Shown piece by piece: positions 106-21,463 of a DNA stretch of 25,651 nucleotides; the first letter of the stretch is position 1; each line of letters begins with the position of its first letter. The DNA comes from Paraspadella gotoi (taxonomy: Eukaryota; Animalia; Chaetognatha), in NCBI GenBank assembly GCA_051294375.1, contig JBJCIZ010000218.1, positions 6,257 through 31,907 on the forward strand, written 5' to 3'. A model generated the notes under the pieces. The model had not been told where the DNA came from. It worked only from the letters and a program-made list of their open reading frames with translations, and did not search any database. The position numbers and the translations under genes are program-made.

Positions 106-611
106 AAAAAGGAGGAAAGGATAGCGACGATAAGGACCTGTTTTTATGCAGATCGGTCACGACGCAGTCGGAGATGTTGAGGCGGAGCAGGCACGGCGAG
201 TTCGACGGCCATGACGTCGAAGGGCGCCGCCTGGAAGCGCGTCGCCTCGGAAACGCCGCCTTGAGCGCCGCCGAGATGATTGCCGGAGAGGAGAGCCGCG
301 GCCCGCCGGTAGATGAAGACACGTCGACGACGACAGTGCCAAAGACGATCGTATCTGCGATAAGGGAATGGGAGGGGGAAAAAGTGAACGAGGGAAAAGT
401 ACATGGCCAAAGTTTTTTCTCACATTTTCAAGAAAAGGGGAGAGATGATACGCCGTACATGCTGAAGCCCGCGCCGCCTCCCGTTCCGCCGTCCGGGCCG
501 CCGCTGGTCCCATCAACGCCGAGTAAGCCGCCGGCTGACGAGCTTCACGCCGCGCCAGTCATTGGAACGCCGTCATCGTTCGTCGGGTTGTCGCCGACAC
601 GAGTGTCACTT
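106..611 (-). other. GC-rich possible host exons separated by a short minus-strand GT-AG intron (~355-423)
   Basis: GC-rich blocks are separated on the minus strand by GTGAGA...pyrimidine tract...TCGCAG, with a TTGTAG acceptor near 612-617. Reading frame and product could not be resolved. Confidence 0.3.
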
Positions 612-667
612 CTACAATAAAACTACATTTCGTTGAAACTCATGGGCAATTAAATGATAGACAATAG

Positions 668-862
668 AGATCTCGACTCTATAATTCACTTTGTCGGTCC
701 GTCGGTCCGCCCCCTCAATATTGTCGGGCAACCACATATATGTCAGAATATCGAATTATGATAAATTATGCCTAATTAATTAACTTAAATCAATTAATCA
801 TTAATTAATTAATTACCGATAATGATCGGGGCAGATCTGACATTGTTTGCTCAAACTTGTTT
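668..862 (+). mobile_element. Short DINE-1/HINE-like non-autonomous Helentron (family A), 5' end eroded
   Basis: CTCTATAAT plus GTCGGTCCGTCGGTCC microsatellite, AT-rich core, 3' subterminal repeat GCAGATCTGAC, GTTTG-CT-CAAAC hairpin and TTGTT end. Homologous to 7262-7407, 7518-7597, 17594-17671 and 20281-20316. Confidence 0.65.
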
Positions 863-1285
863 TAGTTAACTTTTAAATTTTTTGCTGTCGTTTCTTTTTC
901 GATTTTTATTTCGAATTTTTTCTGTTTTGCTTATTAATTTGTTGAGTTGTTAATCTTGTTGATTTGTTGATAGGTAAAAGACGTAATAGATGAGCGCACT
1001 TCAAACAACCCCAGGTATAATTAACATGTATGGAAATAGCATACATGTCATAGATCATAGCCAGGGCTGTCAGAAATGACAGTAAATTGAGTTAAAAACT
1101 TCTGAAAAAAAAAAGACCATGCCAATTCTTCTTAAAAGCTGGCCATGCGCTCATTAAATAATGAGCAATCACAGGCCACGTCTTGCCATGCAAACATTCA
1201 CAATGATCACAGGCGTTAAACATCGCCATGCATTGAGAAATGTAAGATCACAGGCTTAAACCATATCAAATAAAATTACAAAAAA

Positions 1286-4200
1286 TCAATTATGATTTAA
1301 AATAGTTTGTAAAATTACTAACCTATAATACAATAAATCTTTTGGCATTACAATAGAATGGTTAAGTAGTAAGCGTAACCCGACAATACAGATGTAAACA
1401 CCGCAAGAAATTGTATCAGATCCAGCTTGATGTGGTACAAAAGCTTCTGATCCTAAATCTAAGTGCTTCCATATGCTAATGTCTAAACCTTTTCTATAGC
1501 AAAATACACAAATAAGATCATAAATTTTGCGCAGCGTTGACTGCCGGATTTGTCCAAGCGGATCATAAGTTATAAATAATTTTTTGTCAAAATCTAATAC
1601 ATATAAAATCCAATGCGATTCCAATTCAAGAAAAACACCAATTAATTTAGAAATTCTACTACTTTGAACTAAACAATCATGGCCTAATAAACCATCAAAT
1701 GTTATACTAGATTCTGGGGGTATGTTATACGCACATAGAAACTTATGTTTTAAAGGACCTAGATAAACATAAGCACAAGTCTTGAATAGAGTGTACACAG
1801 AATAAAAAAAAGCATCAATAACAACATTAGAAAATGGTTTTTGATCTATAATACTGGTTAATATGCTTTGAGTTAAATTGTACTGTCCAATGTTTTTGGA
1901 AAAAGGAATAACCAAATTAGAAATACTTTGGTTTTCAATACCAGTACTTTTCAGTTCTAATGGTTGAAAAACTTCATCATATGAAATTTTTTGTATTCCA
2001 TAAATTTCAACAGCACAAGGCCGGATTATTTTCAAAACAAACACATGCTTATCAACTGTGTTTAAGGTAATGCATCTTTGTGTCAAACAATTTACAAAAC
2101 AATCATTACGGTACATAAAAACGCCATTTTTTTTAAAACTTACATTGTACAAGGAATCAATCTTAAATATACAGTTTTGATAATTTTTATTTATTTTTCC
2201 ATATTCTGTCAATAAATTATTTAAAAGAAGCTCAAGGTTCTTCACCTCACCATAGGATGAATAATGTATCACAATTTCAGGAATACGAGTAATTTGAAAA
2301 CTTTCAACATTTAAATGGTGTGCACATTGAAATTGGAGTAAAGATGCCAAGTGACTTTTAATTTTAAATAAATAATCATTATTTATAATCGATACAGCAT
2401 TAGCGGTAGGAAATCTTTCACTAACAACAAATAACTTTGAACAATCTTTACAAAAAGATCTAACCTCAAACTGTAAACCCATAGTATTGCTAATATCAAT
2501 TTCGAACAACTTTTTAAAAAAGAAATCCAATCTTTCAAAATTTAATTCTTGTACACAATTATTTCTAGCAAAACAAACATTATGGTCCTGTAAATTTCTA
2601 GGTTTCATATCTATACTAGTAATAATATTTTTGAAAAACACACATTTATTTTTTAAAAAGTATTTTAATTCTGTATTACATTTAACACCATCTCTTTCAA
2701 AGAGAATATAAACAATTTTCTGACATGCTTTTTCGAAATCTGGGCTATCCTTTTTAAAAATTTTTTTAGAATCTTCATTATAAACTTCATAACACTGCTT
2801 AGCATCATTATAAGATAAATTATAAAAATGACCACAGTTATCATATCCTTGAAACAATATAGCTCCCATAAAATGAAAAGAGATTTCCTTATTGAAAATT
2901 TTAACATTTAAATTTAAATCAAGTTGAACTTTCTCATTGCTTACTGTCACATAATCATTATGTTGTAACCAATTCCTTCCTATTCGAATTAATAGATTCG
3001 AAGGAATTTCACAAAACTCTGTAGATAAACATGCATTTTTATTTTTGCAATGATCACAAATATATGTTAAAAGTGGTGTATCAAAAAATTGATTTTGAAT
3101 CATTTTGGTTAAGGAAAAAGAACTGCTAGCTGGTATGGTAATGAAAAGTTCAGTATTTTCTTGTTCATTTTTATATTCACAAGAATTGCATCTAATAGTT
3201 TGCTTTAATTTTAATCGTTCACTAATCATAACATTTAGTACAGGTTCTAAAGTATATTGTAACTGTTTAGTTTGGTCGTTATAAACTTCTTTTAAAAAAA
3301 CATCATGAAGTTTTTTTACTTTATCATTTTTAATAATTATATCTAAACCCAATAATCTATTATAATGAGCTTCAAGAATCATTTCATAAAAACAACGATG
3401 AAATAAAGAATCACTACTTGAATTTATAATAAATTCATAAATATCAGAGTTTAGTGAAAAGGAATTACTTGATAAATTAAAAGCAGCCATAGAGCTACAC
3501 TGTTGACCTAGATTTTCATACAAAAACATAAGGGACCGATTTTCCTTAATGAGAATCGTATCATCCTGGACAAAATTATCTTTATATTGCTCACTTAATG
3601 AATTTAACCTTTTCTTTTTCTTGTTAAATACTTCGGGGGCATTTAATTCTGAATCAATAGAATGCTTACGCTTTTTAGCCACTATTTTATCATGAATAGG
3701 TAATAAATTTTCAAGTAAAATAATAAACAATGAATGATTATAGTTCTGTTGAAGTTTAATCACTGAATCTAATCTTTTTTTTCCCTCTAAAAGGTCTTTA
3801 AATAATTTATTCCTATTTTCACTGACATTGTTGGTAAAATCAGCAAAGCTACTTGATCGCAAACTATCAACGTTTAGTTTCCCAAATTTACCTTTTGAAA
3901 TTTTAAAATTCATATCAGATTCTAATGACAAAGTATGTCGATTAATATTGCCAGTAAAAATGCCAGTATGGATTGGCATGCTTGTCCAATTATCAATATA
4001 ATACGTAAGAAATTCTGGTAATTTAAGTTCATTAACTGTTCCTTCCACACTTTGTTCTGTTTCTTCTATTTTGTTTTTTAAAAGTAATATATCTTTTTTA
4101 AAGGGCGAATCTCGTAAGGGGCAATTTAACGGAATATTTTGTTCTGACAATGCTTCATTTTCATTATTTTTAACAAATGTTTTTTTAAATTCTAATGTAG

Positions 4201-6727
4201 CAAACTTATCTCTAATATTTAAAAATTTTTCAGTAAACTCATCTTTTGCCTTTTCAAAACGTAAATCTTTAACGTTACTTAATGCAATAACCATCAATAA
4301 CTCTAAACAGTATTTAAAATCTGAGTATGTACGACAAGAGGATAATACCCTTGCAGCAGAACAGTAAAATTTTTGAACAGCTTTGTCAACTTTTAATTGA
4401 ATAAGCTTTTTTTTTATATTTTGAAAATAATGAAAGTAACACAGTTGTAAAAGGGGCTTATCTATGTCTTCAGTAGTTGCTACATTGTTAGCTATTCTAT
4501 AAATCCTTTTTATAAATTCGCCTACTGTTTCATTGCAAAAAACATTTAAAATGGCAGAAATAATCGCAAATGACTTATCAGTTTTGAACATTTTTGGAAC
4601 ACTATCAATTCCCATATCATCTAGCTTATTTTTAATTAGCTTTAAAAATAACCCTATTTGTTCTTTTGTTTGTAAGGACAAGTAACCTTCAGCAAATGAT
4701 ATTGGAGCATTCCCTTTTATAGGGTTTGGCACTGACAGCTGATAGAGCTCAAGTTTTTTTCCATGAATGTTCTGACACAAATCTCCTGTCCCATCTATAC
4801 AGATTGAATAAATACATCCTAATTGATAGCCTACTTTAAGATGCTCTTCACTATAGCAAACTATTTGAATGTTAGGAATTAACTCTAATTTATGTATGTA
4901 TTTAGGAGTTTCAGAAGCCATTTTAACCAATGAAGTTATTAGATCTGGATCAGCATAATTCTTTTTTCGACCTTCTTGCAAAATCTTTCTAAACACATCC
5001 CTGGAAACAGTAGTTTTACCACTACTTACTTCTTTCAATGTTAATTTAGATTTCTTATTTGTTACAAATTGACTGGGGGATTCATTTTTATGTTTATCAT
5101 ATATTAGCTGTCTCTCGTTCTTTCGGACATACGAGGATTTTGGCTTACCTTCCCTACTATGAACACATGTAACATGGCTTGACTGATTTCTGGGATCATT
5201 TTTTTTGCCAATATAAAATTCTAATGAAATATTTCCTAAAGAATCGACAAGGACTTCTGCACCTAACTCACAAGAAGTATTCCGGCATTTGAAAATAGCT
5301 TTAATTTGGTTTTTTCGTTTCATATATTTGCAGCCATGGCTGCTATAAATACATAATGAATTATGACGCGTTAAGATTTCTCGGATATGCGGAATGTAGT
5401 CCGAGTTATTAATATGGAAGTGTCCATCTTTTTCTTTTGTGATATTGGATGCTGAAGTTAGTTCTCTAAAAAGGTCAATTTTAAAAAGATTACTTTCTGT
5501 AGGAAAACGTTTTACATGGCATTCCTGATTTTTTTTCAGTACTGTTGGTATTACTTGCTCAATAATATGCTCTTGGTTTAATTCTTGGCTATCATTTGGA
5601 TTATCGTCATCTTCTACATTTGAAACATTAGATTGTTCAACCACAGTTTGAAGAATGTCTTCCAAAAATGAACAATCATCATCATTATTTTTTGAATTCT
5701 CACCTTTAGAGAATTTTTCTATATGGTCGTTGTTCAAATTAGGTGAATTAATGCCATTTGGATCATTCAAATCTTTAAACATTTCAACAGAAATTTGACC
5801 AATTTCATCGTGGCTATAAGCAGACTCGATTATACCTACATTCACTAATTTTGTATGAGACATGTCTGAAGATTGCTCAGTTTGCTGGGTTGTTACATCA
5901 TATAGATGAGTCAACAAAAGATCTACTGATGTATACGTGATGACTGAAACGAATCCATGCCTTTTCAATAAAGGCTTATTTAGGCATGACAAATGACAAA
6001 CAAATGCATCCTTTGTTTTATGCCCTAAACGTGAAATCAATCTCTCTCGGTTATTTACATCTTTTTCATTTAAGATACAATCTAAACAAAGATATCTTTC
6101 TTTGCAGCAGTCACAACTCAGGCAAACGTCTGACTTACGATCACAGGCACAGCAGCATTTTGGTGTTAACGTTTTTTTATTTGTTTTAAAAAAATTCTGG
6201 TGATTGCCTTTTGGCATTTTTTTTTTAATACTTGGTTGTAACTTAATTTCACATTCTGAATCAGAGGATTCACTAGCATTTTCAAATCCTCCACCTATCA
6301 TTGAAGTTGGTGAATGCAATACAATTTTTTTTTTGTGAATATGAACTTTTTTCGTAATTGGATTTTGATATTGCAATTCCTCAATAACTTGATTAACACT
6401 GTACCAGTGACCAGTGATGATTAACTGCCCTAGAGACAATTGTACATTTTCAATTCCTTTTTGTTTTTTTGCCCATTGTATGGCTAATTTTGTAGCCTTT
6501 ACATTGGAGGTTCGAAGTTTAAGAATACTTTTTTTCTCAACAAGAATTTTTAAAACTGCAACCTTGTTTTCCTCTGTGTCATACCGTATGATGAGAATGT
6601 CAAAATCAAAACCAGGTTTTTTTATTAATGTGGTAGTTACGTGGTGAACCCTCTCAATTTCCTTTCTTTGCCCAAAAAACCAAATCGACAAGGATTTAGG
6701 AAAATGTAATTGTACATACATACTCAT
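1286..6727 (-). CDS. Mutator/NOF-like DDE transposase fused to USP (C19) and Ulp1/SENP (C48) cysteine protease domains
   Basis: Open 1813-codon frame in AT-rich DNA. WRKY/GCM-like Zn motif (CRNTSC...HVTCVH). MULE-type motifs: IDGTG (D645), TDKSFAIISAILNVF (D717), CYFH (C763-H766), TNNVSENRN (E970). USP Cys box NLGQQCS (C1077), finger CxxC pairs (CNSC, CDHC), His box GHFY...YNED (H1300) and VYILFER. Ulp1 motifs: FSNVVIDAF, HWILYVLD (H1705), YDPL (D1722), HQAGSDTISCGVY (Q1767, C1775). The frame stays open ~43 codons upstream to a TTTCAG acceptor at 6858-6863. Confidence 0.9.
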   Translation of the reverse strand: MSMYVQLHFPKSLSIWFFGQRKEIERVHHVTTTLIKKPGFDFDILIIRYDTEENKVAVLKILVEKKSILKLRTSNVKATKLAIQWAKKQKGIENVQLSLGQLIITGHWYSVNQVIEELQYQNPITKKVHIHKKKIVLHSPTSMIGGGFENASESSDSECEIKLQPSIKKKMPKGNHQNFFKTNKKTLTPKCCCACDRKSDVCLSCDCCKERYLCLDCILNEKDVNNRERLISRLGHKTKDAFVCHLSCLNKPLLKRHGFVSVITYTSVDLLLTHLYDVTTQQTEQSSDMSHTKLVNVGIIESAYSHDEIGQISVEMFKDLNDPNGINSPNLNNDHIEKFSKGENSKNNDDDCSFLEDILQTVVEQSNVSNVEDDDNPNDSQELNQEHIIEQVIPTVLKKNQECHVKRFPTESNLFKIDLFRELTSASNITKEKDGHFHINNSDYIPHIREILTRHNSLCIYSSHGCKYMKRKNQIKAIFKCRNTSCELGAEVLVDSLGNISLEFYIGKKNDPRNQSSHVTCVHSREGKPKSSYVRKNERQLIYDKHKNESPSQFVTNKKSKLTLKEVSSGKTTVSRDVFRKILQEGRKKNYADPDLITSLVKMASETPKYIHKLELIPNIQIVCYSEEHLKVGYQLGCIYSICIDGTGDLCQNIHGKKLELYQLSVPNPIKGNAPISFAEGYLSLQTKEQIGLFLKLIKNKLDDMGIDSVPKMFKTDKSFAIISAILNVFCNETVGEFIKRIYRIANNVATTEDIDKPLLQLCYFHYFQNIKKKLIQLKVDKAVQKFYCSAARVLSSCRTYSDFKYCLELLMVIALSNVKDLRFEKAKDEFTEKFLNIRDKFATLEFKKTFVKNNENEALSEQNIPLNCPLRDSPFKKDILLLKNKIEETEQSVEGTVNELKLPEFLTYYIDNWTSMPIHTGIFTGNINRHTLSLESDMNFKISKGKFGKLNVDSLRSSSFADFTNNVSENRNKLFKDLLEGKKRLDSVIKLQQNYNHSLFIILLENLLPIHDKIVAKKRKHSIDSELNAPEVFNKKKKRLNSLSEQYKDNFVQDDTILIKENRSLMFLYENLGQQCSSMAAFNLSSNSFSLNSDIYEFIINSSSDSLFHRCFYEMILEAHYNRLLGLDIIIKNDKVKKLHDVFLKEVYNDQTKQLQYTLEPVLNVMISERLKLKQTIRCNSCEYKNEQENTELFITIPASSSFSLTKMIQNQFFDTPLLTYICDHCKNKNACLSTEFCEIPSNLLIRIGRNWLQHNDYVTVSNEKVQLDLNLNVKIFNKEISFHFMGAILFQGYDNCGHFYNLSYNDAKQCYEVYNEDSKKIFKKDSPDFEKACQKIVYILFERDGVKCNTELKYFLKNKCVFFKNIITSIDMKPRNLQDHNVCFARNNCVQELNFERLDFFFKKLFEIDISNTMGLQFEVRSFCKDCSKLFVVSERFPTANAVSIINNDYLFKIKSHLASLLQFQCAHHLNVESFQITRIPEIVIHYSSYGEVKNLELLLNNLLTEYGKINKNYQNCIFKIDSLYNVSFKKNGVFMYRNDCFVNCLTQRCITLNTVDKHVFVLKIIRPCAVEIYGIQKISYDEVFQPLELKSTGIENQSISNLVIPFSKNIGQYNLTQSILTSIIDQKPFSNVVIDAFFYSVYTLFKTCAYVYLGPLKHKFLCAYNIPPESSITFDGLLGHDCLVQSSRISKLIGVFLELESHWILYVLDFDKKLFITYDPLGQIRQSTLRKIYDLICVFCYRKGLDISIWKHLDLGSEAFVPHQAGSDTISCGVYICIVGLRLLLNHSIVMPKDLLYYRLVILQTILNHN

Positions 6728-6974
6728 GTCCTCGAAAAAAGGGGATAGTACTTGTGATAGAAAACTTGAAGGTTTAGCAGCTATATATTTGCAAGTTTTA
6801 GGTGAATCACGAAATACTATCAGATAAAGTTCGATAATAATTTTTTTTGTTTGGAATCTGAAATAAAAATTTTAAAAGTATAATGATCTTGACAGCTTCA
6901 CTGATAAAACATTGAAACAATAATAAAGTGTAGTGATGTAATATCACTACCCGTTGGATACGACTTTTTTCCAT

Positions 6975-7110
6975 CAGCGTCCTAATAGCGCACTGGGCTA
7001 ATGTTTCATCTCTGACAACAATGGTCACGGGTTTTAGCCCTGGTCGGAAGTTCTTGCAAAAAGAGTGACGGGACGGTTAAACCACTGGTAGCAAGCCTAC
7101 CACCGGATCT
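6975..7110 (+). mobile_element. Diverged SINE copy upstream of the transposase ORF
   Basis: GGTCACGGGTTTTAGCCCTGGTCG...AAGAGTGACGGGACGGTTAAACCACTGGTA resembles the SINE B-box region and body. Confidence 0.45.
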
Positions 7111-7261
7111 AAAGTTACAAAAAGCAAGGCAACTGAAGGAAAAATATCCCAGACCAACTGGGCTCACTAAGTGTGGGGACTCTCCACACACACATGGCAT
7201 GGCCTGGCATGTCGACCTCTCTGTCACTTCAAAAGCATATTAATCAATTATGACATAAATA

Positions 7262-7407
7262 AGGGCAACCACACTCAAAAATTGTAAGTACAATTCAAAA
7301 CATCAAATTATGACAAATAATACTGTTCAGATCATAAATTGAAAGAATTATCATGATTACCACTAAATTATTGCAAGTAGATCCGACGTTGTTTGCTCAA
7401 ACTTGTT
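7262..7407 (+). mobile_element. Family A HINE-like element, 3' half
   Basis: GGGCAACCACA...ATCAAATTATGACAAATA...AGATCCGACGTTGTTTGCTCAAACTTGTT matches 727-861. Confidence 0.65.
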
Positions 7408-7517
7408 AGGATATTTAAGGTTTAAGACCAGATTCAGATAGCTTGAAATAAGTGGTTTACAATTTAAATATTTATATTTTAAAAATACAAACATTATAAA
7501 AAAATATTATCTTTTAA

Positions 7518-7597
7518 TTTTTAGCCGGATCTGCTTATAGCAGATTCCGGCTCTATAATTTACTTTGTCGCCTCGTTGGTCCACACCCCCAAATAAG
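7518..7597 (+). mobile_element. Family A HINE-like element, 5' end
   Basis: T-run, hairpin AGCCGGATCTGC-TTATA-GCAGATTCCGGCT, then CTATAATTTACTTTGTCG. CGGATCTGC is the reverse complement of the family 3' subterminal repeat. Confidence 0.65.
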
Positions 7598-8433
7598 AAC
7601 ATCAAATTAGTTTATTAAATTTTCATTTCATTTAAAAAGCTATAATTCCATTTTTGGTTTAACTTTATATTCTTCATTAGAATCCATAAAACATTTTAAT
7701 TAAAATTTTAATTATAATAATACTAATAATATAAAATTAGAAATACTAATAGGTTTTGACATTTCACAATAAATTTGTTTGAGAGTTTAAAAGCAATACT
7801 CTGATGACTTTATAAACATTTTAACGAGCAAATGATGAACATACATAACAGTCTCAGTCATAGTTTGGGCATGCTAAAGTAGTGAAGGACATGTCCTAAA
7901 ATATAACCAAAACTGGCATGATAGGCAGTGTAGCAAAGATCACCAGGGAAATACTCTTAAAGCAAAAAAAAGGCTACTTTAAAAAATCTAAACATACATG
8001 GTTGAACCTATGTTACAAAACATAAGAATAGCACAATGGTGTGAATCAGTTGCTTCTTTTATAAATTAATCAGCTTTTAAGGCCTAGAACGGTTTAGCCA
8101 TGCATTTATTCTAGACGTCACAGACAACTCTGAAAAGTGTCATGCTCTAGAACAAAAGTTCACAGGCACACTCCACATGTAATTGATTTTTATTTTATTT
8201 TTACATCAACATTGTGCTACAATTCACTAACTAGTTTTTAACTTAATCTAAATTTTTACTCTTTTTATTATATTCTCTATTAATACTGTTGATATTGCCA
8301 GTAAGTGTAATGTCATATCAACTTTGACATCTTTGAAACTTGATTTTAACTATTCAAAGATAGAATAATAAAGTAAATTAACAAAACTAATTTTTTTAAA
8401 TTCATTTTAATTTTATTTTAATTTAATATAATT

Positions 8434-9036
8434 TTACAAATAATAGTTAATCGCTAATTTAATCTCCTTCATTAAAACTTTTTTCCCAAAGTCTGATAGG
8501 TGTATTCCGTCTTGAGAAAGATAATGTTCATAATTATCAAATGTTTCTGGTCTAATAAAAAAAATTTTGTTTACATGACATCTGCAACGTAAGTCACTTA
8601 CATTAAAATCTCTTATAATTTGATTAACCTTTTTTATATAATTATCATCTTTTGATTCTGGAAAGCGAGTGCGCAAACATAAATTTTTTTTCCTTTGACA
8701 CAATGGAATGTGAAACAAAATCAGATTGCTATAAGTACAAAGTAACTTACAAGATAATTCTCTAATTTCTTGTTTAATATTTAATAAAGCAATATCTGGA
8801 GAAACTCCGGAATTAATTTTAATAGAAATATCATTTTGTCCAGCACAAAAGATTACAATTTCATGCGAATTTAAATCTTGATGGATATAACCATTAGGAC
8901 CAATTAGGTCACTTACTAATGCCCCACTGTAAGCAGATACATCTAAATGTGTCAATTTAGTACTCTGTAATATATTATCTAAACAGTCTTCTGGGATATT
9001 TCGACAAATAGAATCAGATAATAATAAAGCACGCAT
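8434..9036 (-). CDS. SGNH/GDSL hydrolase (esterase-like), intronless
   Basis: All four SGNH blocks in order: LLLSDSICR (I), YSGA (II), AGQNDI (III), DGIHLS (V); 200 aa with ATG start. Confidence 0.85.
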   Translation of the reverse strand: MRALLLSDSICRNIPEDCLDNILQSTKLTHLDVSAYSGALVSDLIGPNGYIHQDLNSHEIVIFCAGQNDISIKINSGVSPDIALLNIKQEIRELSCKLLCTYSNLILFHIPLCQRKKNLCLRTRFPESKDDNYIKKVNQIIRDFNVSDLRCRCHVNKIFFIRPETFDNYEHYLSQDGIHLSDFGKKVLMKEIKLAINYYL

Positions 9037-9228
9037 GAGAAATAAAAATGTTTAATATGATAAGGCTGCATCAACTGAACGAGGATAAACAATGTCGTGT
9101 AAGACAAGTTTTTTTTATAAAAAAAAATCCCTAAAAAGAAAAATACAAAATATAGTAATCTCGCCAGCAGAATAGCGCGAAGGCAAAGATTGCGACAAAC
9201 AAGAAAATAAACATTCAAAAGTCAGCGG

Positions 9229-9540
9229 TTATGTTTGAAACAGTGCGGGCCTTCTTCTCTTGCTCACTCGGTTTTCACACCCGATCAGCGAAACAGTTTC
9301 TACTGAAGAATAAATTGTCGATCTGAAATTCCCCCGCGAATCGAGATTTAGGTGCTCACTTAAGGCTGAGTTGAGGCGATTAAGATCGTCCATCATCATG
9401 TTCAACGCCTCTTCGTTCCAGGTTCCACAGAAAATCTCGAACCGGATCCGTGCCATCACCGCCTTCGCGATGTTTTCCATACGCGACCGAGTGGCACCCG
9501 ACAACATCAGACGTAAATTGAGTCCAGAAATATTTGACAT
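9229..9540 (-). CDS. Small hypothetical protein (103 aa) with a basic C-terminus (SKRRRP)
   Basis: ATG-initiated ORF in a locally GC-richer patch, co-oriented with the SGNH and transposase ORFs. No recognisable domain. Confidence 0.35.
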   Translation of the reverse strand: MSNISGLNLRLMLSGATRSRMENIAKAVMARIRFEIFCGTWNEEALNMMMDDLNRLNSALSEHLNLDSRGNFRSTIYSSVETVSLIGCENRVSKRRRPALFQT

Positions 9541-10499
9541 TCCTCAACAGAATGACCGCTCAGGTTCACAGCCATTGTCCGGAGAAAAGAGTCACATTCT
9601 AGTAGTTTGGATGAAAGGCAAAATTGGGGACTGGTTAAATGACGGTTCCGCCTAAGAGCTCCCAAAAGGTTAAATGCTTCATTAAAAACACTATATTAGA
9701 TAATAAGATAAGAATAATTATATTTATATTACATGCTATATATTTATAATCGTTATATTCCTGGGTTTACATTTCTTCGTCTTTATAATCTCATTCTTTC
9801 TCTTGAGAAACGGGAGCAAAGTAAAGCGCCGATCTCAAATCCTCTGGGACGTCGAGTCTTTCCTTGCCTTACAGCTACTATCATACACCGCCACGAGAGC
9901 CAATACAATGATAAACAAAATATGTAAATAAGTGCCGGAATGACTTAGGATCACAGCAGAAAAAATAACATGAAAAAATAAAAGAATCATAAAAAAATGT
10001 TGATTCATAAGCCGTGGTTAGCCATGGCTTTCGGAATGGTTTTGCAGCAATGTGCGTTTGGGCCTCTAAATAATAAATCATAAATTGTAGATTTTATTGA
10101 TACTGGATCCGAATATTCTGATGACTAATGATTCTGATGACCTAAATTAACAAAATCTACTATGAAAATTATTAACTATTAAAAATTTTATAAATTACTT
10201 TCACTAAACTAATAGTTTTTTACTTTAATTGAAAAATACAAGCAAATTTATGGAACGCCATAAAACCAGTCCACTTTGGGTCAATCGCCGCGGTCGCCGC
10301 CAGGGCCCTGGCGTTATTGAACTAGAACTTTAGTTAGGGTAGTGCGGGGTAATTCGGAACACTGACATGAAATAAAATTTTTTAAAAATGTGTTTAAGTA
10401 TTTTATATTTTTTGGGGTTCATTTAATATTTCAGCAACTTGACTTTCCATTATTAAAGTTATAGCATTTGGCTGCTGCTGCAGCAAGCAAATTCAGAGC

Positions 10500-11032
10500 T
10501 GCTAGTCAAATTTCGTCTGAGTAGTCGTTTTTCAAGCCTCTGTCTGGAAAGAAATAATAGAAAGGAAAGAAATATAGAAAGGAAAAAAAGAATAGAAAGG
10601 AAAGAAAGAATAGAGAAGAAAGAAAGAAAGAAAAGAAAGAAAGAATAGAAAAGAAAGAAAGAAAGAAAAGAAGGAAAAAAGAATAGAAAGGAAAAAAAGA
10701 ATAGAAAGGAAAAAAAGAATAGAAAGGAAAAAGAATAGAAGGAAAAAAGAATAGAAAGGAAAAAAGAATAGAAAGGAAAAAAGAATAGAAGGAAAAAAAG
10801 AATAGAAAGGAAAAAAGAATAGAAAGGAAAGAAAGAAAGAGAAGGAAAGAAAGAATAGAAAGGAAAGAAAGATAGAAAGGAAAGAAAGATAGAAAGGAAA
10901 GAAAGATTAGAAAAGGAAAAAGAATGATGAAGAGAAGGATATAAAAGTATAAAAAAAATAAAAAAATAATAAGAAGAGAAGAAAAAATGAGAAAAGAATA
11001 TCGTCGCAAACGCAAAGATTGCGACGATAATT
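10500..11032 (-). mobile_element. Family B HINE-like element nested in the MITE, with a purine-rich internal repeat
   Basis: Terminal hairpin (minus strand) TTATCGTCGCAATCTTTGCGTTTGCGACGAT, also seen at 15892-15928 and degenerately at 9172-9200, followed by an AGAATAGAAAGGAAA-type array. The other end is approximate. Confidence 0.5.
10547..10997 (+). repeat. Purine-rich low-complexity tandem repeat
   Basis: Repeated AGAATAGAAAGGAAAA(A) and GAAA units. Confidence 0.9.
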
Positions 11033-11649
11033 AGTCAAAAATACTATAAATAACAAAATATATACAAATTTTGTATCTATTGTCATTCAATAATTTATCA
11101 AAACTGAGAACATGATAGTAAAAATCATTTTAAGCACTTAAAAATATAATATTTTCAATTTTTTATACATAAAACATTATTGAAAAGCTCTATGCTCTTA
11201 CTAACTTTTAAAAATAAATTTACTATGCGAAAAATTTTATTATTCCAAAAGTGTTCCGAATTTCCCCGCACTACCCTATTATATTCCGGTCGAAGGCGAA
11301 GGAGGCGTCGCTGAGATCAGGTCCGTTTCCTGTTCTCTGATAAAAGTAAAAAAGTTTGATCTGTATTTAGAAACAAACATTATACAATAGATCTTCCAGG
11401 ATTATCAAACATTATAGAAAGTTCTTGATTCTCGCAAAGTTTCTCATTCCAAATTTACCTGAAAATTTTTTTCCGAATGCTCTTTATGGACTTTCCGCGC
11501 CACTTTTGGCGCAAACCACTTCCGGTTAAAATAGATACAGATTTGATAGATTTTGCTAGCACACTTAGTAAATTAATCAAAATATATTTACTTATAACCC
11601 TAATACTTAATTATTTTGTTTTGGTTCATAATGGTTTTTTTATTAAATA

Positions 11650-11800
11650 ACCGGAGGCAAGTCATTCGCCTGCCAACCCAAAGGTCCGGGGTTCTAGCCC
11701 CGTGGTCGCTTAGCAGTTAAGAGGGAAGGGGAGCTTAACCCGCCTGTAACATGGTCCGAAGCTCAGGGACTGCCTACATTGAACGGTTCTGTCATTAACA
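11650..11800 (+). mobile_element. tRNA-derived SINE copy
   Basis: CCAACCCAAAGG...GGTTCTAGCCC...AAGAGGGAAGGGGAGCTTAACCCGCCTGTA...TCCGAAGCTC matches the 21108 copy. Confidence 0.65.
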
Positions 11801-11846
11801 CTTATCAATAATTACTGTCTCTTCACAACGAATTTTAGTTATTAAA

Positions 11847-11888
11847 AACGGACATGTTTTGGCTTTAATACAAGCCTTCTTCAGCGCT
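11847..11888 (-). ncRNA. Minimal type I hammerhead ribozyme-like motif (Penelope-type), GAAA mutated
   Basis: AGCG-CTGAAGA-A-GGCTT gtatta AAGCC-AAAAC-ATGTC-CGTT; stems I and II can pair. Confidence 0.6.
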
Positions 11889-13881
11889 AAATTTGGAATA
11901 AGAAACTTTGCAAGAACCAACTACTTTTCTAAAGTAGGATATTTTTGGAAGCCCTATTATACAACATCACAGCTGCACCAAGTTGGATTTATAGTTTTAA
12001 AAACTAACTCGATATTTTTAAGTTAATGACGAAAAAATAAGAAAAAAATGAAAGATCGTGTTATGTTCTCTGAGATACTAAAGGACATTTAAGCTGATTT
12101 TTGCAGCTTTAAGTATTGAAATTGCTGCTTCTATTACTGCAGCTAACTGGAAAAAATTAAGCTATCCGTATGAGACAAAATTCGGATGAATCTGCACTTG
12201 GTCGAATTTCTAAACAAAGTTACGTTCAGGATGAAAGGGGTAACAAACTAGAAAAACCAAAATTTCAAAAATCTAACAGGATTTTTGAAAAAATTTTAAA
12301 AGCGTTACGCAATTTGCGATCGTTATTTCGATAAATTGAATATGAAATTATGAATAGGACAAAAAACCAAAAGTAATACAGACATCAGTAATGATTTGAT
12401 GTTTACTCTACGCTATAAATGATTTTCTATACACGGTTAATTCAGTGAGGATTTTATCTTTTTAGCAAAACTCGAGACTATAATAATCTAATTAAAAATA
12501 CTAAAAAGCACATTTACTATAACAAAAGTTTAAAAATCTTAAAGCAACAAAAGATCATTTTACAATTTTTTTTACTTTTTAACTTGAGATGAAATAAATT
12601 AGCAAACAATGATTCTTAAACAAATTAAATAATATCAATAATACTGCAGCATATCACATGTTTTTTAATATTACACACGAGAAAAATCATGGATACGTAA
12701 TGTGGCAATCTTTTACAAATATCAATACGATGCACAAACTTCAAAATCAATTGTTATCATATATACCATAACAGTGAAAATAGGGATTTCACCTGACAAC
12801 ATTTCGTATAGACTGAAATAAAACTTATTTGTGTACAGCAAGCAAATCCACAAAGACAAGCGAGGAGCAAACTTAAAGTTCAGTCAGTAATTAGCAAACC
12901 AATAAACAGAGTTTACTCCATACGTAAGGTTTGCTTTTAACAGAAAAACCGCGCTTGCGTTAACGTTAAGAAAAATTCATTGGCAACAGTAGGAAGAATC
13001 TTGAACTTTGGCAAGGCTTCGTAATTAAGATCATGCAATCAAATATTGCTACAGAGAATAGGCAAATCAAGACTTCGTTATAATGGTGTGAAGAAAACTA
13101 TGGCTCTGAGATCATATTTAAAATACAAAGCATTCGAAAAGATTGAGAGGGGATAATTACATTAAAAACATTTGGCATCCTTGAGAATGTTAAGCAAAAA
13201 ACGAAGTAAGAAAACTAGTTTTGACGTTTCTTCCTGTGAGATATCAATATGTACGCCGGCATTACAAACCTGTTAAATGCTGTTGCCGGAGTTTATGTGG
13301 TTTTTTTCCCCAAAAAAATTATTTAAAGGCCTAAATATCATTGAGCTCGAGTTCTTCTCTACAAAAAATTCATATTAATGAATATTAATGGGATAATTGG
13401 ACTTGCCTCTGCTGCTAATCGAAAGAGAATGTTGGTGTTCTTTTAGCTTAAACTAAACGGGCAGAAAAAAGCTACGATTTACAGAAGACGGGGCAGGAAA
13501 ACGGTTAACACAGAACAGTCTAAATTAAAATAGGGGAAGTACGATAAAACCAAAAAGGGAGGACGAAACCAGACAGCCATCATGAATGTCCAGTGAGGAG
13601 AAAACAAAATCGCGAATCAGGTTAGATTTGGGATTAATCGCCAACCGTTCGGCAATTGGCGGCCTTGTGCCCTCCTTGCCGGCATCTATAACACGCCATA
13701 TCTCCACCGGAAATATGCGACCTGTAAGGATGTGTTCGGACATTTCCAGGCCGACTATTTCCAACAACAAATGGATTTCCGGAATAGGGCCTAAAAAAAA
13801 CTACTATATAAACAAAGTATATAAAAAATTGCAAGATAAATGTATGTTATAATTTTTTTAACATTTTAAAAATTATAGTAC

Positions 13882-14573
13882 TTGAACGAGTTCAGTTTTG
13901 GCTGCGGCAGTGGCGGCGCGGACCATTTTTTCTCCTTATCTGATTTCCGACTATCGCCAGGGTGGGTTTTCCGCCCGGGGCCGCTTGCCTGCCGAAAACT
14001 TTTAAAATTTAAAAATTTTTTAAAAAAAATTTTAAAATAATTCTTTTTAAATAGTTTTTCAAAAGCCGCCAAAACCGCGGTTGTCAAAAGTAAAATTTAG
14101 CTAAAATATTTCATTTTAGATACTTAATTTTTATTATTACTTCTTCCCTTATGAAGATTAAAATTATAAACCACCAAAGCCTGTTCAAAGTCAGGGGCAA
14201 GATATTATCCATTCATTTAATAAATAATCTATCTTGCCTCTGACTTTGAAGAGGCTTTGGTGGTTTATAATTTTAATCTTTGAAAATTCATAAGGGAAAA
14301 AGTAATAATAAAAATTAGGTATCTAAAATGAAATATTTTGGCTAAATTTTACTTTCAACGACCGCGGTTTTGGCGGCTTTTGAAAAACCATAAAAATTAT
14401 TTTTTAATTTGATTTATTTTAGAGAGGAAACGAAAAATTCTAAATTTTACTTATTTAAATTTTTCGGCAGGCAAGCGGCCCTGGGCGGAAGACCCTGGCG
14501 ATAGTCGAAAATCAGATAAGGAGAAAAAATGGACCGTGCCGCCATTGCCGCAGCCAAAACCGAAATCGTTCAA
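13882..14573. mobile_element. Foldback/MITE element made almost entirely of long inverted repeats
   Basis: Arms ~13882-14204 and ~14230-14573 are reverse complements (TTGAACGAGTTCAGTTTTGGCTGCGGCA... / ...TGCCGCAGCCAAAACCGAAATCGTTCAA) around a ~25-bp loop. Partial copy at ~22430-22490. Confidence 0.85.
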
Positions 14574-14789
14574 TAAAAATATTTGGCGGGAGACTTACGA
14601 AAAAAGCACTCCATGAATCATGAAACCCGATGGTCCACTTCCACCACTGTTCCGTGACTGCCTAAATAGGAGGGACAGAGGGAAAAAATCGGCAATGGGA
14701 CAAGAGGGAAAAAAGGGGAATAATAAGATTACTTCTTTTACTAAACCTTTAAATACATTAATGTTCATTAGTACAACATTGTTTATTCC

Positions 14790-15258
14790 TCACTGGTAAT
14801 GGCGATGAGGTTGGCGAAAATCGATTGTTGGACGACGGGCAGTGCCATTTCCTGAGTCTTCGGCCGAATTATTACCGGACGATTCTGCATCTGGTGCATC
14901 TGTGACAACTACCGCTGAATCCACAGCTGGTGGGTCCGTGATGCTACGCCAAATCGGCAGCCCGGTCCGTCACGGCTACCGCCAAACGGCGCCGCGGGTC
15001 CGTCACGGCTACCGCCGAATTGGCAGCCGGCGGTCCGTCACGGCTATCGCCGAATCGGCAGCCGCGGGTCCGTCACGGCTACTGCCGAATTGGCAGCTGG
15101 CGTCTCAGATTGAGTTGGCAACGGATTCTTCGCAGTGACATTCAGTGAATTCTCAATCGGATCCTCGGCACTGACGTTCGGCGAGAGAGGAACAGAGGGA
15201 GACACACCACTGGCGGCGGACGACATGGCAGATGCCTCCTTTTGGTCGCCACTCACAA
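14790..15258 (-). pseudogene. Terminal exon encoding a Ser/Thr/Pro/Ala-rich protein with 12-aa repeats (PAANSAVAVTDP), frameshifted
   Basis: Acceptor TTTTGCATTAG at 15259-15269. Reads VSGDQKEASAMSS...ETPAANSAVAVTDP and resumes TDPPAVDSAVVVTDAPDAESSGNNSAEDSGNGTARRPTIDFRQPHRHYQ*, with AATAAA 2 nt after the stop. Repeat units at ~14925-15100 carry small deletions, possibly sequencing errors. Confidence 0.5.
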
Positions 15259-15299: not shown

Positions 15300-15928
15300 A
15301 TTGACGACAAATTTTGATACTATAAAAAACAAATTTGAGAAAAGAAAATAAATCTATAAACAGATGGAAAAAAAAAGAAAAGAATAAATATAAAGAAAGA
15401 ATAGAAAGCGAGAGAAAGAAAAAGGGAAAGAAAAAAAGAAGAAAGAAAGAAAGAGAAAAAAAGAAATAAAGATAGAGAAAGAAAGAAAAAAAAGAGAAAG
15501 AAAGAGCGAAAGAAAGAAAAAAAAATAAAGAAAGAAAAAAAGAAATAAAGAGAAAGAGAAAAAGAAAAAAGAGAAAGAAAAAAGAGAGAAAGAAAAAAGA
15601 GAAAAAGAAAAAAGAGAAAAAGAAAAAAGAGAAAAAGAGGGAGATGAAAAAAATCAAATTTGTACAAACTTGGCTAAATAAATAAGTAAACAAAGTAATT
15701 AAACAAATAAGTAATTAAATAAATTAATAAATAGTTAATAAATAAATAATTAAGTAATTAAACAAAGTAATTAAATAAATTAATAAATAGTTTGGTAAAT
15801 GAATAAATAATTATTTAAATCAATAAATGACGACGACGACCCGGATGACGCCGACGATGACTACGCAACTTTTGTGCAAAATCACAGCAAAATCGTCACA
15901 AACGCAAAGCGATTGCGACGATAAAAAA
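15300..15928 (-). mobile_element. Family B HINE-like element with GAAA-rich and TAAA-rich tracts
   Basis: Same terminal hairpin (plus strand ATCGTCACAAACGCAAAGCGATTGCGACGATAAAA), (GAC)n microsatellite and low-complexity tracts at 15338-15650 and 15675-15827. Confidence 0.5.
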
Positions 15929-16296: not shown

Positions 16297-16745
16297 GGGT
16301 CATTTTTACTTTCGGAGACCGTAACTAACTAAAAAAATATTTTTGCAGATTTCGTATTAATCAAAAGTAACGTAAGGAGTTTTATTTCATTTTTTTTTAA
16401 AACATTCTTTGTTGAGGGGAGATTAGGGTTTAGTGGTGGTTAGGGGAGATTAGGGTTTAGGGTTTAGGGTAGGTTTAGGGGAGATTAGGGTTAGGGGTGG
16501 TTAGGGGAGATTAGGGTTTAGGGTAGTTAGGGGAGATTAGGGTTTAGGGGTGGTTACTGGTTAGGGTTAATGGTAGTTAGGGTTAGGTTAGTAGAGTGAT
16601 GTAAAAATAATATAATTTTATAAAATTAAAATTTTGCATATAGAACATAAAAATAAAAACCAATATCCCTATCTAAATATGTCGATCATACGAAGCTATA
16701 AACAAATAACCGACCAAAAAATTGGAGTCTCCGAATGTAAAATTT
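16297..16745. mobile_element. Unclassified MITE containing a TTAGGG-like array
   Basis: TIR-like ATTTTTACTTTCGGAGAC / GTCTCCGAATGTAAAATT; internal degenerate TTAGGG/GGGGAGATTAGGG array at 16417-16590. Related partial copy at ~21535-21714 ending CGAATGTAAAAATAAGCC. Confidence 0.6.
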
Positions 16746-17512: not shown

Positions 17513-17566
17513 TTGGTCAACTGGTATAATTTTGTCAACTGGTATAACTTGGTCAACTGGCATAAT
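17513..17566 (+). repeat. 18-bp tandem repeat x3
   Basis: TTGGTCAACTGGTATAAT-type units adjacent to the family A 5' end. Confidence 0.85.
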
Positions 17567-17593
17567 TCAATGTTCTGATATGATAAAAATTAT

Positions 17594-17671
17594 TTACCGA
17601 CAAGATTTTGGAGTGGGCCCGACCGACGGACCGACAGAGTCGGAATCTGCGACAAGCAGATCCGAATAAAA
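17594..17671 (-). mobile_element. Family A HINE-like element, 5' end, reverse orientation
   Basis: Minus strand reads TTTTATTCGGATCTGCTTGTCGCAGATTCCGACTCTGTCGGTCCGTCGGTC, matching 7518-7597 and 668-730. Confidence 0.65.
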
Positions 17672-19057
17672 ATGGCTTAAATTTTTTTTTTCAGGAAGTG
17701 AAATTTATCTAAAAGTTAAAACGCAATAATGTCTTTACTATATAAAAAACATTTTATAACTAATTTTATTAAACTCGAATTTCTTTAACCGTTCATCTTA
17801 TATCGAGTTCTAGCTCATCTTAAAGAGGACATCGATTATCTGATGTTTATAATAACTTAAAGGTAAAGAGTTGCAGAGAAGAATCAGGCTGGCAAAATAA
17901 TGCGGTAGAGCACTCCGATTTTTACACCGCCATTCAATATATCATTCATCAAAAGTAGATTAAACTAGTAACCACAACTCGCGACTTTGTACACTAAAAA
18001 CGACAGAATTGTTTTTATCTAGTTATATCCACAAAATTAGATATCTAACACTAAATAGCCAATTAAAAAAAAACTACTTTACTAAGAAATCCACAATGCT
18101 CTTTAGCAGGAAAAATAAATTATCCAAAGCTTTCTAATTAAACAAAAAACATTCCTAAAAGTTGTACAAAGTAATATTGTACGATTTGAATAAGCCAAAG
18201 ACTGGTAGAATTAGCACCAAATCAGGTTAAAATAAAAATCAAATCAAGATAAAAAAATGAATAAACAATCACAACGTATTCAATAATGAATAAAAGAAAA
18301 CAGTAATAAGTTTGCTATTGCAAATGGCGCAATATACATCCATGCTATCCGAAAAGGACAAGAAGCGCCGCAACACGTTTCATCTGCGAAATCATTGCAT
18401 TATGTCATCCACCTAAAAAAAATGATAATTAAATGTAATAAGGTTAAGACAGGTTAATCCAGCTGTTGCCATAATCTCTCCTTTTCACAAAAAAGAAAAG
18501 TGATTAAGTGATTCGGTCTCACCATAGATGATGCATCAGAGTCGTCGGCGTTGATCAACTCTCAACATGTTTTCGAATTATGTAATCCGTTCTGAGGGAG
18601 ACAAAGAAAACTCAATCAAAATTTTGAGCAAAAAAGCTCGACTCACGAATTAAGAGATATATTTGGTAAAAGTGATCTTATTTTCATCATCATCATAAAA
18701 TCATCCAAAAAAACCTAAAATATCCATCGACGAGATCGAGGTGTCACCCGTGCCGTTCGCGCCGCATCTTGAGGTCGCGCCAACGAGTCACCGCTCGGAC
18801 GAGACGCCGCGTAGGGTTGATCAGCCACACCTGCTCGTTGTGGGTGTTTAGAGGGAGGAGTCCAAAAATAAGTAGCACGAAAAAAGATGGTAGAAGCATA
18901 ATTTACCTAACGCTTTGATTTAGAGGGCCCTAGCGCTTCATTAGTTAGTTTAATTTTTGCACTTTATAAATTTTAAATCCAGTTAAATATCGAGTGTTGA
19001 AATAAGAGATTAAAATTGATGCGATAAACCTTTCGTTTTCGTTGTTATTAGGATATA

Positions 19058-19207
19058 GAGAAATGCAAAGTTTTTGAAATTGGTACAACGAATTTATTTG
19101 AAAATACGGACATGTTTTGGCTCACATTTTCAAGCCTTCATCAGCCGAAACATGTCCATATTTTCAAATAAATTCGTTGTACCAATTTCAAAAACTTTGC
19201 ATTTCTC
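19058..19207. repeat. 150-bp palindrome centred on a hammerhead motif (Penelope-like terminal remnant)
   Basis: 65-bp arms 19058-19122 and 19143-19207 with 2 mismatches. Minus strand has CTGATGAAGGCTT...AGCCAAAACATGTCC; plus strand has AGCCGAAACATGTCC. Confidence 0.8.
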
Positions 19208-19577: not shown

Positions 19578-20316
19578 GAAACTATATATCCAGCTCAATC
19601 ACACACAAAATTTCATTCCAATCCATCAATCCAATCACGAGTAATTGGTGATTTTTGCTAAGGTGGAACGGACGGACAGACGGACATTTATTTTGCATAA
19701 TTGTTCTGAGTCGAGTCTGCAAAGTCACTAACAAATCCCAATTACTCGTGAATGGATGGATGGATTGGAATGAAATTTTGTGTGTGGGTAGGGAAGTGTG
19801 TGATTGAGCTGGATATGAAGTTTCGATGGAATCGTGCGAATGGAAAAGTTTAAATGGAAAAAAAAACTTTCACTATTTGAACGCCAATTACTTATAAGTG
19901 GATTGGGCGATTGACTTGAAATTTTGTATGTGGGTAGGAAAGTATGTGATTAAGCTGGAAATCAAAATTCAATGGAATCGTCTGAGTGAAAATGAATTTA
20001 AATGGAAAAAACAAAAAACCTGTTTCACTTATTGATTATGCTTCTTTTTCTTTTTATATTAAATGTAAATGCAAGATGTATTAATCAACCAAAATAATTA
20101 ATCAGTTAATCAATTAGTCAATTAATAAATAATTAATTAGTCAATCAATTTATTTATAAATTAATTATTTAATCAATCAAGTCAATCGTTATCAGCATTA
20201 TTGTCGTCGCCTAAAAACAAACATTTTAAATTAATTAATTTATTAAATTATTATTTTAGTTTATATAGTTTGAATTAATTAATTACCGCTAATAATCGTG
20301 GACAGATCCGACATTG
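19578..20316 (+). mobile_element. Rearranged DINE/HINE-like element with internal inversion, ~145-bp tandem units and a family A 3' end
   Basis: GGAC microsatellite at 19667-19685; inverted arms ~19578-19660 and ~19730-19824; direct units ~19772-19865 and ~19918-20010; TAAT-rich tract; AATTACCGCTAATAATCGTGGACAGATCCGACATTG matches 811-845. Confidence 0.5.
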
Positions 20317-21107
20317 AAAAAAAAAAAAGATTGAGCAAACAAATTCAGAGAGCTGGAAAAAATAAATAAAAAATATTGGGCAACTTTACTATTCAACGTC
20401 CTCAACCGACTGGCAACCAAGGGTCGGTGCTTTGTTAATCCATTTAATTTTTTTTCCTCTTTAGTGTCGAGTCTCAGTTTGCGCAATAATATGCATTTTT
20501 TTGTTTAATAATACTAATTTTATAATAAATAATAATAGTTTTAAATTTATTTTAATTGCTATTTTTATGTTTGAGGTAGAAAATGAATTGTTTATGTACG
20601 AGTTTTATAAAGAAACAAATTTCAGACATCTTTCTGCTTCAATGTAAGCTTTAATCAGCGCAAAAACGAATTGATTTGTGAAACAAATATTTTCAGACAC
20701 TTTCTCTCTCGCTCCTGAAGAAACCCCTCCAGGACCCGGGGGGGGGGGGTAGACGGAAAAAGACGTATAGCCTCAAACGGACTGAAAACCCCGAGACCAA
20801 TGGCGCGGCATATGTTTATTTTAAATGCTTATTTTTGAAAGTCACTTGATTCCCGTTCTAATATTTAGTACCTTAATAAAATAATCAAAGCATATAGATA
20901 TACAATATAATCAATGAAATACTAACTAATAATCAAATGATTAATCATAGGAAGCAATATTAAATCCACTAAGCATCCACAAACGTTTATTATTTTAGAG
21001 AAGAGTCCCGTTTCAACGCAGAATTGTAAATAATCGCGAGAGACAAGTTATGAGACGAAATTCGATATTGTAGCGGTAGTATTTCATACCCTGCTACTCG
21101 TCCGAGA

Positions 21108-21290
21108 ATCAGCAGCACCTATGGCGCCGGGGGTAGCACGAACTCCTCCCAACCCAAAGGACTCGGGTTCGAGCCCTGCTGATTCACACAAGTAAAAGCG
21201 GGACGGGGCGTCTAACCCACCTGTAGTGTCGGACTACAGCCCGATCCGAAGTTCGGGACCTTGTGTGCAACGGTCGGTAAACTGCTCGCG
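21108..21290 (+). mobile_element. tRNA-derived SINE
   Basis: A box TGGCGCCGGGGG (21122-21133), B box GGTTCGAGCCC (21166-21176), acceptor-like stem ATCAGCAG/CTGCTGAT, and a body shared with three other copies. Confidence 0.7.
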
Positions 21291-21420
21291 GCATCGTCTT
21301 CCACAATATCTCTCTTAACCTAGGCAAAAGAGCATCCGAGTTGTAGATATTCGTCTGGACTTTACACTCCTTCAAACTTCAAAGTCTGTTAAAATATTTA
21401 TTTCACAAATTAATTCGTTT

Positions 21421-21463
21421 TTGCACTGATGAAGGTTTACATTGAAGCGGAAACATGACGGAA
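21421..21463 (+). ncRNA. Hammerhead ribozyme-like motif
   Basis: CTGATGA-A-GGTTT acattg AAGCG-GAAAC-ATGAC. Core boxes intact; stems and cleavage triplet drifted. Inverted degenerate copy at ~20620-20665. Confidence 0.55.

Follow-up and report, generated by a model that had tools for sequence, protein, structure and literature searches.

The window analysed here, a 25,651-nucleotide stretch of Paraspadella gotoi DNA, carries an intact gene that encodes, in one chain, a Mutator/Rehavkus-like transposase, a USP deubiquitinase-type domain and a Ulp1/SENP-type protease domain. Judged by the sequences of 13 relatives that keep the same order, the DDE-USP-Ulp1 architecture is a family trait and not a one-off. 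We propose that the gene belongs to a cut-and-paste element, that the Ulp1-type domain clips the leader of its own protein at a GGG motif and that the USP domain de-ubiquitinates; the proposal as a whole is, in our judgement, evenly poised between right and wrong.

An open reading frame scan of the window, which is AT-rich, repeat-rich eukaryotic DNA, returned a frame of 1,813 aa on the minus strand at 1286-6727 with no internal stop and no introns. A stop-free run of this length has a chance of about 1e-70 at the base composition of the window. The preliminary description had spoken of one unbroken reading frame, which is borne out, and the catalytic residues that it listed (D645, D717, E970, C1077, H1300, N1317-E1318-D1319, H1705, D1722 and C1775) all lie at those positions; its CxxH corresponds to C763-Y-F-H766. 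The parts of the protein are as follows.

1286 to 6727, minus strand: the 1,813-aa reading frame, in the order leader, GGG, PHD-like finger, acidic linker, zinc-finger DNA-binding region, DDE transposase, basic motif, USP, probable dead USP-like domain, Ulp1/C48.
6287 to 6295, minus strand: G145-G146-G147 (M-I-G-G-G at 143-147), candidate self-cleavage site.
5984 to 6154, minus strand: PHD-like Cys-rich finger, aa 192-248, in which a Cys stands where His is usual, from alignment with relatives.
4928 to 5410, minus strand: conserved zinc-finger/helical DNA-binding region, aa 440-600, with C481-x4-C486 and H523, from conservation in relatives.
3773 to 4825, minus strand: MULE/Rehavkus-like DDE core, aa 635-985, with D645, D717, C763xxH766 and E970, from a 30-sequence alignment and the ESM Atlas.
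3608 to 3679, minus strand: basic, NLS-like stretch, aa 1017-1040, bearing a family-conserved E-x-W/F-x-KK motif.
2687 to 3538, minus strand: USP/C19-fold domain, aa 1064-1347, with N1072, C1077, H1300 and N1317, from fold match and conservation.
1958 to 2680, minus strand: conserved middle domain, aa 1350-1590, a probable second USP-like domain without catalytic Cys or His boxes.
1289 to 1915, minus strand: Ulp1/SENP (C48)-fold domain, aa 1605-1813, with H1705, D1722, Q1767 and C1775, from fold match and conservation.

Four of these had been missed before: the PHD-like finger (192-248), the zinc-finger DNA-binding region (440-600), the middle domain (1350-1590) and the GGG (145-147). The finger, the probable dead second USP and the hydrophobic-GGG motif are what the present analysis adds to the preliminary description.

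The preliminary description had proposed Pfam as a check on the three enzymatic domains. Segments of the protein do match MULE (E 0.053), UCH_1 (E 4.4e-4) and Peptidase_C48 (E 0.03), but all three matches are below threshold and a scan of the whole 1,813-aa protein gave none. The domain calls are based on the profiles and conservation of relatives and on a structure model. In the ESM Atlas, aa 430-1020 group with MULE clusters (0.94-0.95) and aa 1060-1600 with UCH clusters (0.93), matches that we treat as leads and count together as a single source. A word-index homologue search with the single window protein returned no match, and the same search with a family profile returned one ordinary USP and nothing else.

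The relatives that the preliminary description had proposed to look for exist. A phmmer search with aa 620-1813 against 1.84 billion representatives found 133 relatives at E ≤0.001 (21 at 1e-10), of which the 13 with the order DDE-USP-Ulp1 share 20-34% identity over the DDE core; P0002 and P0003 align across almost the whole query at 26-28% identity. Four fragmentary matches were replaced by full-length members of their clusters (P0144, P0147, P0148 and P0150). Thirty relatives, picked as long or tail-covering, were scanned with Pfam, and in six (P0019, P0021, P0029, P0035, P0047 and P0082) both UCH and Peptidase_C48 exceed the curated cut-offs, in that order, behind the DDE core. Profiles built from the family itself, a partly circular measure, place DDE-USP-Ulp1 in 14 of 134 entries (the window and the 133). 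The DNA-binding and/or DDE part alone is found in 100 of the 134, mostly short entries, together with some long ones that have no detectable protease (for example P0054, P0031 and P0113); the proteases appear not to be essential to every lineage of the family. None of ten relative clusters looked up has an informative name, and scans of metagenome contigs for relatives gave no loci. In its diverged branch the family is nearly invisible to Pfam, and it is likely to be under-annotated.

CxxH after the second Asp is a feature of the MULE/Mutator superfamily, and the window protein has both this and the DDE triad. Within the 30-sequence alignment, D717, C763, H766 and E970 are invariant (30/30) and D645 is kept in at least 90%; one relative, P0049, matches Pfam MULE at E 0.0014. 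The zinc-finger region that precedes the core, which we take to be WRKY/GCM-like, keeps its Cys/His pattern in relatives and has no Pfam family match. Pfam PHD fingers were found in P0012, P0029, P0031, P0035 and P0113, and the PHD-like finger of the window aligns with those of the last four; Pfam gave no match on the window's own finger. For the basic stretch at aa 1017-1040 we infer an NLS role.

The tail of the protein (aa 1060-1813) was modelled with AlphaFold2 from a 24-row alignment (pLDDT 86, pTM 0.76); folding from the single sequence gave no usable fold (pLDDT 31). The alignment took in four ordinary USPs, which may pull the model and which inflate the profile match of the tail to USPs in the PDB (E 7e-39); the corresponding match to SENP1 has E 2e-25. 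By VIA-align, the USP part (model 3-288) superposes on USP12 with Z 23.1 (rmsd 3.2 A, 274 aligned) and the C48 part (model 533-754) on SENP1 with Z 20.2 (rmsd 2.9 A, 208 aligned), followed by yeast Ulp1 (19.9), NEDP1 (17.6), USPL1 (15.1) and pS273R (13.1). Foldseek agrees (USP30, E 7.8e-15, TM 0.72), and phmmer aligns SENP1 with aa 1698-1783 at E 0.005. The predicted structure matches the USP fold, which consists of palm, thumb and zinc fingers, and its C48 domain has the CE-clan fold with His-Asp-Cys and the oxyanion Gln. Structure prediction, another step that the preliminary description had put forward, thus returns folds of the kinds expected, and its central claim, a MULE-type transposase, a USP and a Ulp1/SENP domain fused in one chain, is supported by the relatives and by this model.

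The USP domain likely removes ubiquitin marks, as its conserved residues suggest. The usual Q-x-D motif is degenerate in the window, residue 1318 is Glu, and the third catalytic residue is Ser in 4 of 14 family members, so that activity on ubiquitin is not assured. Behind it, the middle domain is modelled confidently, with helices preceding strands as in the first USP; its finger cysteines and the Pro that follows are conserved, and it has no Cys or His box. HH-align places it against USP at E 9e-4 to 2e-2 (probability 2-23%) versus E 0.27-0.51 for reversed controls, and UCH_1 matches it in one of eight members (E 0.011). Neither a pairwise alignment of the USP with the middle domain (349/1,000) nor a scan of the middle segments with the USP HMM of the family rose above shuffles, and a PDB search with a profile of the middle domain returned no USP. 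We tentatively read aa 1350-1590 as a probable pseudo-USP.

Across the 14 three-domain proteins (the window and its 13 relatives), D717, C763, H766 and E970 are present in all and D645 in 13, the remaining protein being truncated. Asn1072, Cys1077 and His1300 of the USP are each kept in 13 of 14; its third residue is Asn or Asp in nine, the four with Ser and one gap making up the rest. For Ulp1 the counts are His 14, Asp 13, Gln 11 and Cys 11. The Cys is lost in one clade (P0002, P0003 and P0144) and in fragment P0007. All three catalytic sets are conserved across the family, so selection acts on the proteases and they do not ride along as passengers. Trees of the DDE, USP and Ulp1 domains have five common splits, each supported at 0.8 or more, and inter-domain distances correlate at 0.80-0.82 (0/2,000 permutations), driven largely by the division into near and far members; one split among the seven distant members differs between the trees. 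These common splits and correlations indicate that the three domains have travelled together for a long time. The clade of P0002, P0003 and P0144 is itself intact; its members retain the fold of Ulp1 with its His and Asp and have lost both the catalytic Cys and the Gln, which makes them a natural pseudo-protease control.

G145-G147 is the only Gly-Gly of the 1,813-aa protein and lies within an N-terminal hydrophobic-GGG motif. Among the 11 proteins with the Ulp1 Cys in which an N-terminal part is present, five have the GGG there (the window, P0147, P0148, P0150 and P0047), where 0.25 would be expected and 0 of 5,000 shuffles did as well, a p-value that is optimistic because the motif was spotted first and counted later. 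By density, there are five GGG in 3,730 N-terminal residues versus one in 15,820 residues elsewhere. In the near clade the motif stands in register ahead of the finger. All four near-clade members with the Ulp1 Cys have GGG, and all three Cys-less members (n=7 in total) are without leader and motif and begin just upstream of the DNA-binding region; the three form one clade and represent one event. The other six Cys-bearing proteins are distant and have no N-terminal GGG, and their starts may be truncated.

CE-clan proteases (Ulp1/SENP, adenain, ASFV pS273R) cut after Gly-Gly, hence our proposal that the C48 domain releases the leader at this site. Such a cut at the conserved GGG by the protein's own C48 domain is likely, as far as sequence can tell. 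The GGG could alternatively be a flexible linker or a site for the USP. A prediction of the Ulp1 domain together with a GGG peptide, made without an alignment, scored 0.01. Among the ideas of the preliminary description, self-processing as a polyprotein has gained the most specific support, namely a conserved GGG tied to the Ulp1 Cys, but the cleavage itself is what we infer. The leaders ahead of the GGG vary between members. Residues 1-75 of P0150 resemble an RRM by eye, and the whole of P0150 has no Pfam match; a KH-like reading of aa 1-130 of the window protein, also by eye, found no support in profile searches.

In the mechanism that we favour, the protein would be translated as a polyprotein or precursor, and its C48 domain would cut after Gly-Gly to release an N-terminal leader of about 146 aa. 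Targeting of the transposase would fall to the zinc-finger region and the PHD-like finger, and the USP would strip ubiquitin from the transposase or from bound chromatin, thus protecting the former or opening sites in the latter. The middle domain may act as a scaffold without catalytic activity or may bind ubiquitin, and SUMO could also be removed in trans. The self-cleavage step has a specific sequence correlate, and for the putative deubiquitination step the argument is conservation.

Alternatively, the two proteases may form an anti-silencing kit that acts wholly in trans, clearing silencing factors and histones at the DNA of the element of their SUMO and ubiquitin, with the GGG as a linker. 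We consider this possible though rather unlikely. In Drosophila, the silencing of transposons guided by piRNA needs SUMO and a SUMO ligase (bioRxiv 10.1101/533091, accessible part), and Vandal MuDRs encode a sequence-specific anti-silencing protein (accessible parts of PMC6446971 and PMC12730594). A PHD-like reader in the same chain and SENP1 and Ulp1 as top fold matches of the C48 domain point the same way. However, rank among structural matches would not give the substrate of the C48 domain, with NEDP1 at Z 17.6 and sequence identity of about 16%, and the intact clade that lost the Ulp1 Cys is also without the GGG leader, which a role on host SUMO does not predict.

A role in transposition itself, with the proteases editing ubiquitin and SUMO signals at breaks and so steering repair or the turnover of the transpososome, seems to us improbable. 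The proteases are co-inherited with the DDE core, as this role would have it, and it has been put forward for the Ulp1 and OTU domains that Ginger1 and Mutator transposases carry, but in the accessible part of PMC2836005 it is a suggestion and not a result, and several long relatives have no detectable protease.

Returning to the gene as a proposed part of a self-processing cut-and-paste element, we describe its surroundings, which comprise the following features.

1142 to 1255, no strand assigned: three degenerate units of about 40 bp, CATGC-N-TCACAG, directly past the stop codon of the transposase frame; candidate subterminal repeat.
8097 to 8167, no strand assigned: two more CATGC-N-TCACAG units, past the stop codon of the SGNH frame.
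8434 to 9036, minus strand: SGNH/GDSL-hydrolase-like reading frame of 200 aa, 1.7 kb upstream of the transposase frame; Lipase_GDSL_2 E 0.001, below cut-off.
693 to 7030, no strand assigned: stretch absent from a joined form (692 to 7031) found in three of four runs, both ends inside other repeats.

Scans for TIRs and TSDs in the window gave only chance pairs and internal matches between copies of one unrelated high-copy repeat, and the window copy is a putative mobile element. Because the window stops about 1.3 kb past the stop codon and has an assembly gap at 86-105, an end of the element may lie outside it. CATGC-N-TCACAG has five matches versus 0.06 expected, the pattern having been drawn from the first three. 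Rfam gave no match in 120-12500, and the repeat units show no folding beyond that of shuffled sequences (z -1.4 and -1.7).

The SGNH frame possibly belongs to the transposase element. A diverged copy of it in the reads differs by at least 10 synonymous and at least 12 non-synonymous codon changes, and its many third-position changes suggest that the frame is under selection. The contig of this copy in run X9 leaves the window sequence past the stop codon, which makes the link to the transposase element uncertain. Upstream of the SGNH frame lies a frame of 103 aa (9229-9540, minus strand) that has no Pfam match, and a diverged form skips 9229-9363. A fuller version of our proposal would have a Rehavkus-like lineage with a transposase that processes itself in the manner of viral polyproteins and whose PHD-like reader, active USP and pseudo-USP erase ubiquitin at the DNA of the element itself, with the SGNH gene as its second gene; this we offer as tentative, and as doubtful in its entirety.

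Read contigs of four of nine listed runs were placed on 120-10450, run X9 having no coverage of 2535-6674. Among the read rows listed, pieces of the transposase frame show 0-2 other letters in three runs, and there is no sign of many near-identical copies. In run X3 these pieces have depths of 272-310 versus 244 for a neighbouring unique piece, depth not being equal to copy number. We read the joined form as a deletion derivative or deletion allele; its joint as an empty site was ruled out, since there is no target duplication and both ends cut other repeats. A diverged copy of the C48 region carries at least nine non-synonymous changes, one of the nine lying elsewhere in the frame (aa 267), and at least two synonymous ones, and it also skips 71 bases across His1705 and has 7 bases inserted. 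Split copies adjoin whole ones in the clusters of two relatives. Such split copies, and the degenerate and deleted forms of the locus in the reads, are as expected of a transposon family, and the reads fit a low-copy family in which one member is intact and several have decayed, a pattern that domestication, though improbable, could also leave.

Weighed on all the evidence, the reading of the window copy as a domesticated or immobilised host gene derived from such a transposon seems quite improbable: it accords with the lack of a TIR or TSD within the window, with the depth near that of a unique neighbour and the 0-2 other letters in three runs from two studies (rows listed), and with the domestication of MULEs and the TIR-less MULEs described in the accessible part of PMC6446971, but the window's nearby edge and gap limit the first point, low diversity also fits a young insertion, the frame is without introns, three of four runs have the joined form without the whole frame, and the C48 copy has decayed, with a neutral proportion of changes and with indels.

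The remainder of the window is rich in repeats. An 85-base duplication flanks a 20-N gap within 1-190 and is probably an assembly overlap; a GC-rich open frame on the plus strand, with no Pfam match, runs to 620. Pieces of one very high-copy short repeat, with read depth thousands of times that of the transposase frame, lie at 668-863, 7377-7410, 7517-7592, 17561-17673 and 20322-20349. Long inverted arms mark several foldback or MITE-like elements, at 13871-14584, 20588-21496, 19058-19207, 19600-19786 and 11418-11927. Degenerate TTAGGG-like arrays occur within repeats (16409-16598, 21534-21590 and 22340-22387), and 14909-15097 is a GC-rich tandem array of 5.5 copies of a 35-bp unit. A hairpin-like motif common to 10997-11030 and 15889-15924, each time beside a low-complexity tract, is possibly the end of another element family.

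Among known systems, MULE/Mutator elements have TIRs and a target duplication of 8-11 bp, and non-TIR MULEs exist (PMC6446971, accessible part). Rehavkus (Repbase: Rehavkus-1_DY, -2_NVi, -1_HR, -1_TC, -3_TC and 1_AP) is an outgroup or sister of MULEs. The window family resembles it in having a single reading frame and a PHD finger (present in relatives, with His replaced by Cys in the window) and, by eye against six rows of the PMC13359780 supplement as far as accessible, in the family motifs DATGSV, TDFS/SDFS, CAH, PLW and N-x2-3-E-x2-F. Additionally, the short repeat array 3' of the window frame recalls the Rehavkus minisatellite described in the accessible part of PMC6446971. However, Rehavkus has TIRs of 26-412 bp and a 9-bp TSD according to that part, neither of which was found in the window, and the accessible parts of PMC6446971 and PMC13359780 name no protease for Rehavkus. 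The clade of the window is also more diverged (DGTG, TDKS, CYFH). The DDE motifs by eye, the PHD finger and the single reading frame point to a Rehavkus-like family, which we do not file as Rehavkus. Repbase reportedly notes Ulp1 for Rehavkus, and its entries may list more.

Ulp1 domains are described on Mutator elements of hydra, lancelet, Arabidopsis, maize, rice and melon and on Ginger1 transposases (PMC2836005, accessible part). Like the window protein, these carry a C-terminal Ulp1/C48 domain, some with a PHD finger, but that part reports one protease only and no USP, and for Ginger1 either OTU or Ulp1, never both. The same part describes a Trichomonas vaginalis protein, XP_001314237.1, in which a DDE transposase is likewise fused to Peptidase C19, although the transposase is IS5-like (transposase_11), of another superfamily, and no Ulp1 is reported. 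Helitron-like elements with UCH, OTU or Peptidase_C48 show that both protease families can be stably captured cargo; in contrast to the window family, they are rolling-circle elements whose domains are mostly in separate reading frames, and the accessible part of PMC11417382 does not report UCH and C48 together. The viral CE-clan proteases adenain and ASFV pS273R share clan and fold with the window's C48 domain (pS273R, Z 13.1), but they are virion maturation enzymes without fusion to a transposase. Each processes its own viral precursors by cutting behind Gly-Gly.

Transposons with Ulp1, OTU or C19 domains were noticed years ago, and we know of no job assigned to these domains. The window family offers a direct test, as it provides an intact gene, two separately mutable catalytic cysteines and a candidate cleavage site, to which natural members that jointly lost the Ulp1 Cys and the GGG add. 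If the GGG is cut, a cut-and-paste transposase would mature by proteolysis, which would account for the retention of Gly-Gly-specific proteases in such elements.

Our literature search, which lay outside Repbase Reports and most subscription papers, found no description of MULE, USP and Ulp1 in one reading frame; there is no such fusion in the accessible parts of PMC6431247, PMC5718144, PMC12062965, PMC5751038, PMC13359780 and PMC4079207 or in the preprint texts, without supplements, of bioRxiv 2021.09.26.461848 and 2024.12.02.626372 as far as accessible. Taken together, each protease is known singly on transposons, and what is new in the window family, as far as the searched literature shows, is the presence of both in one transposase chain.
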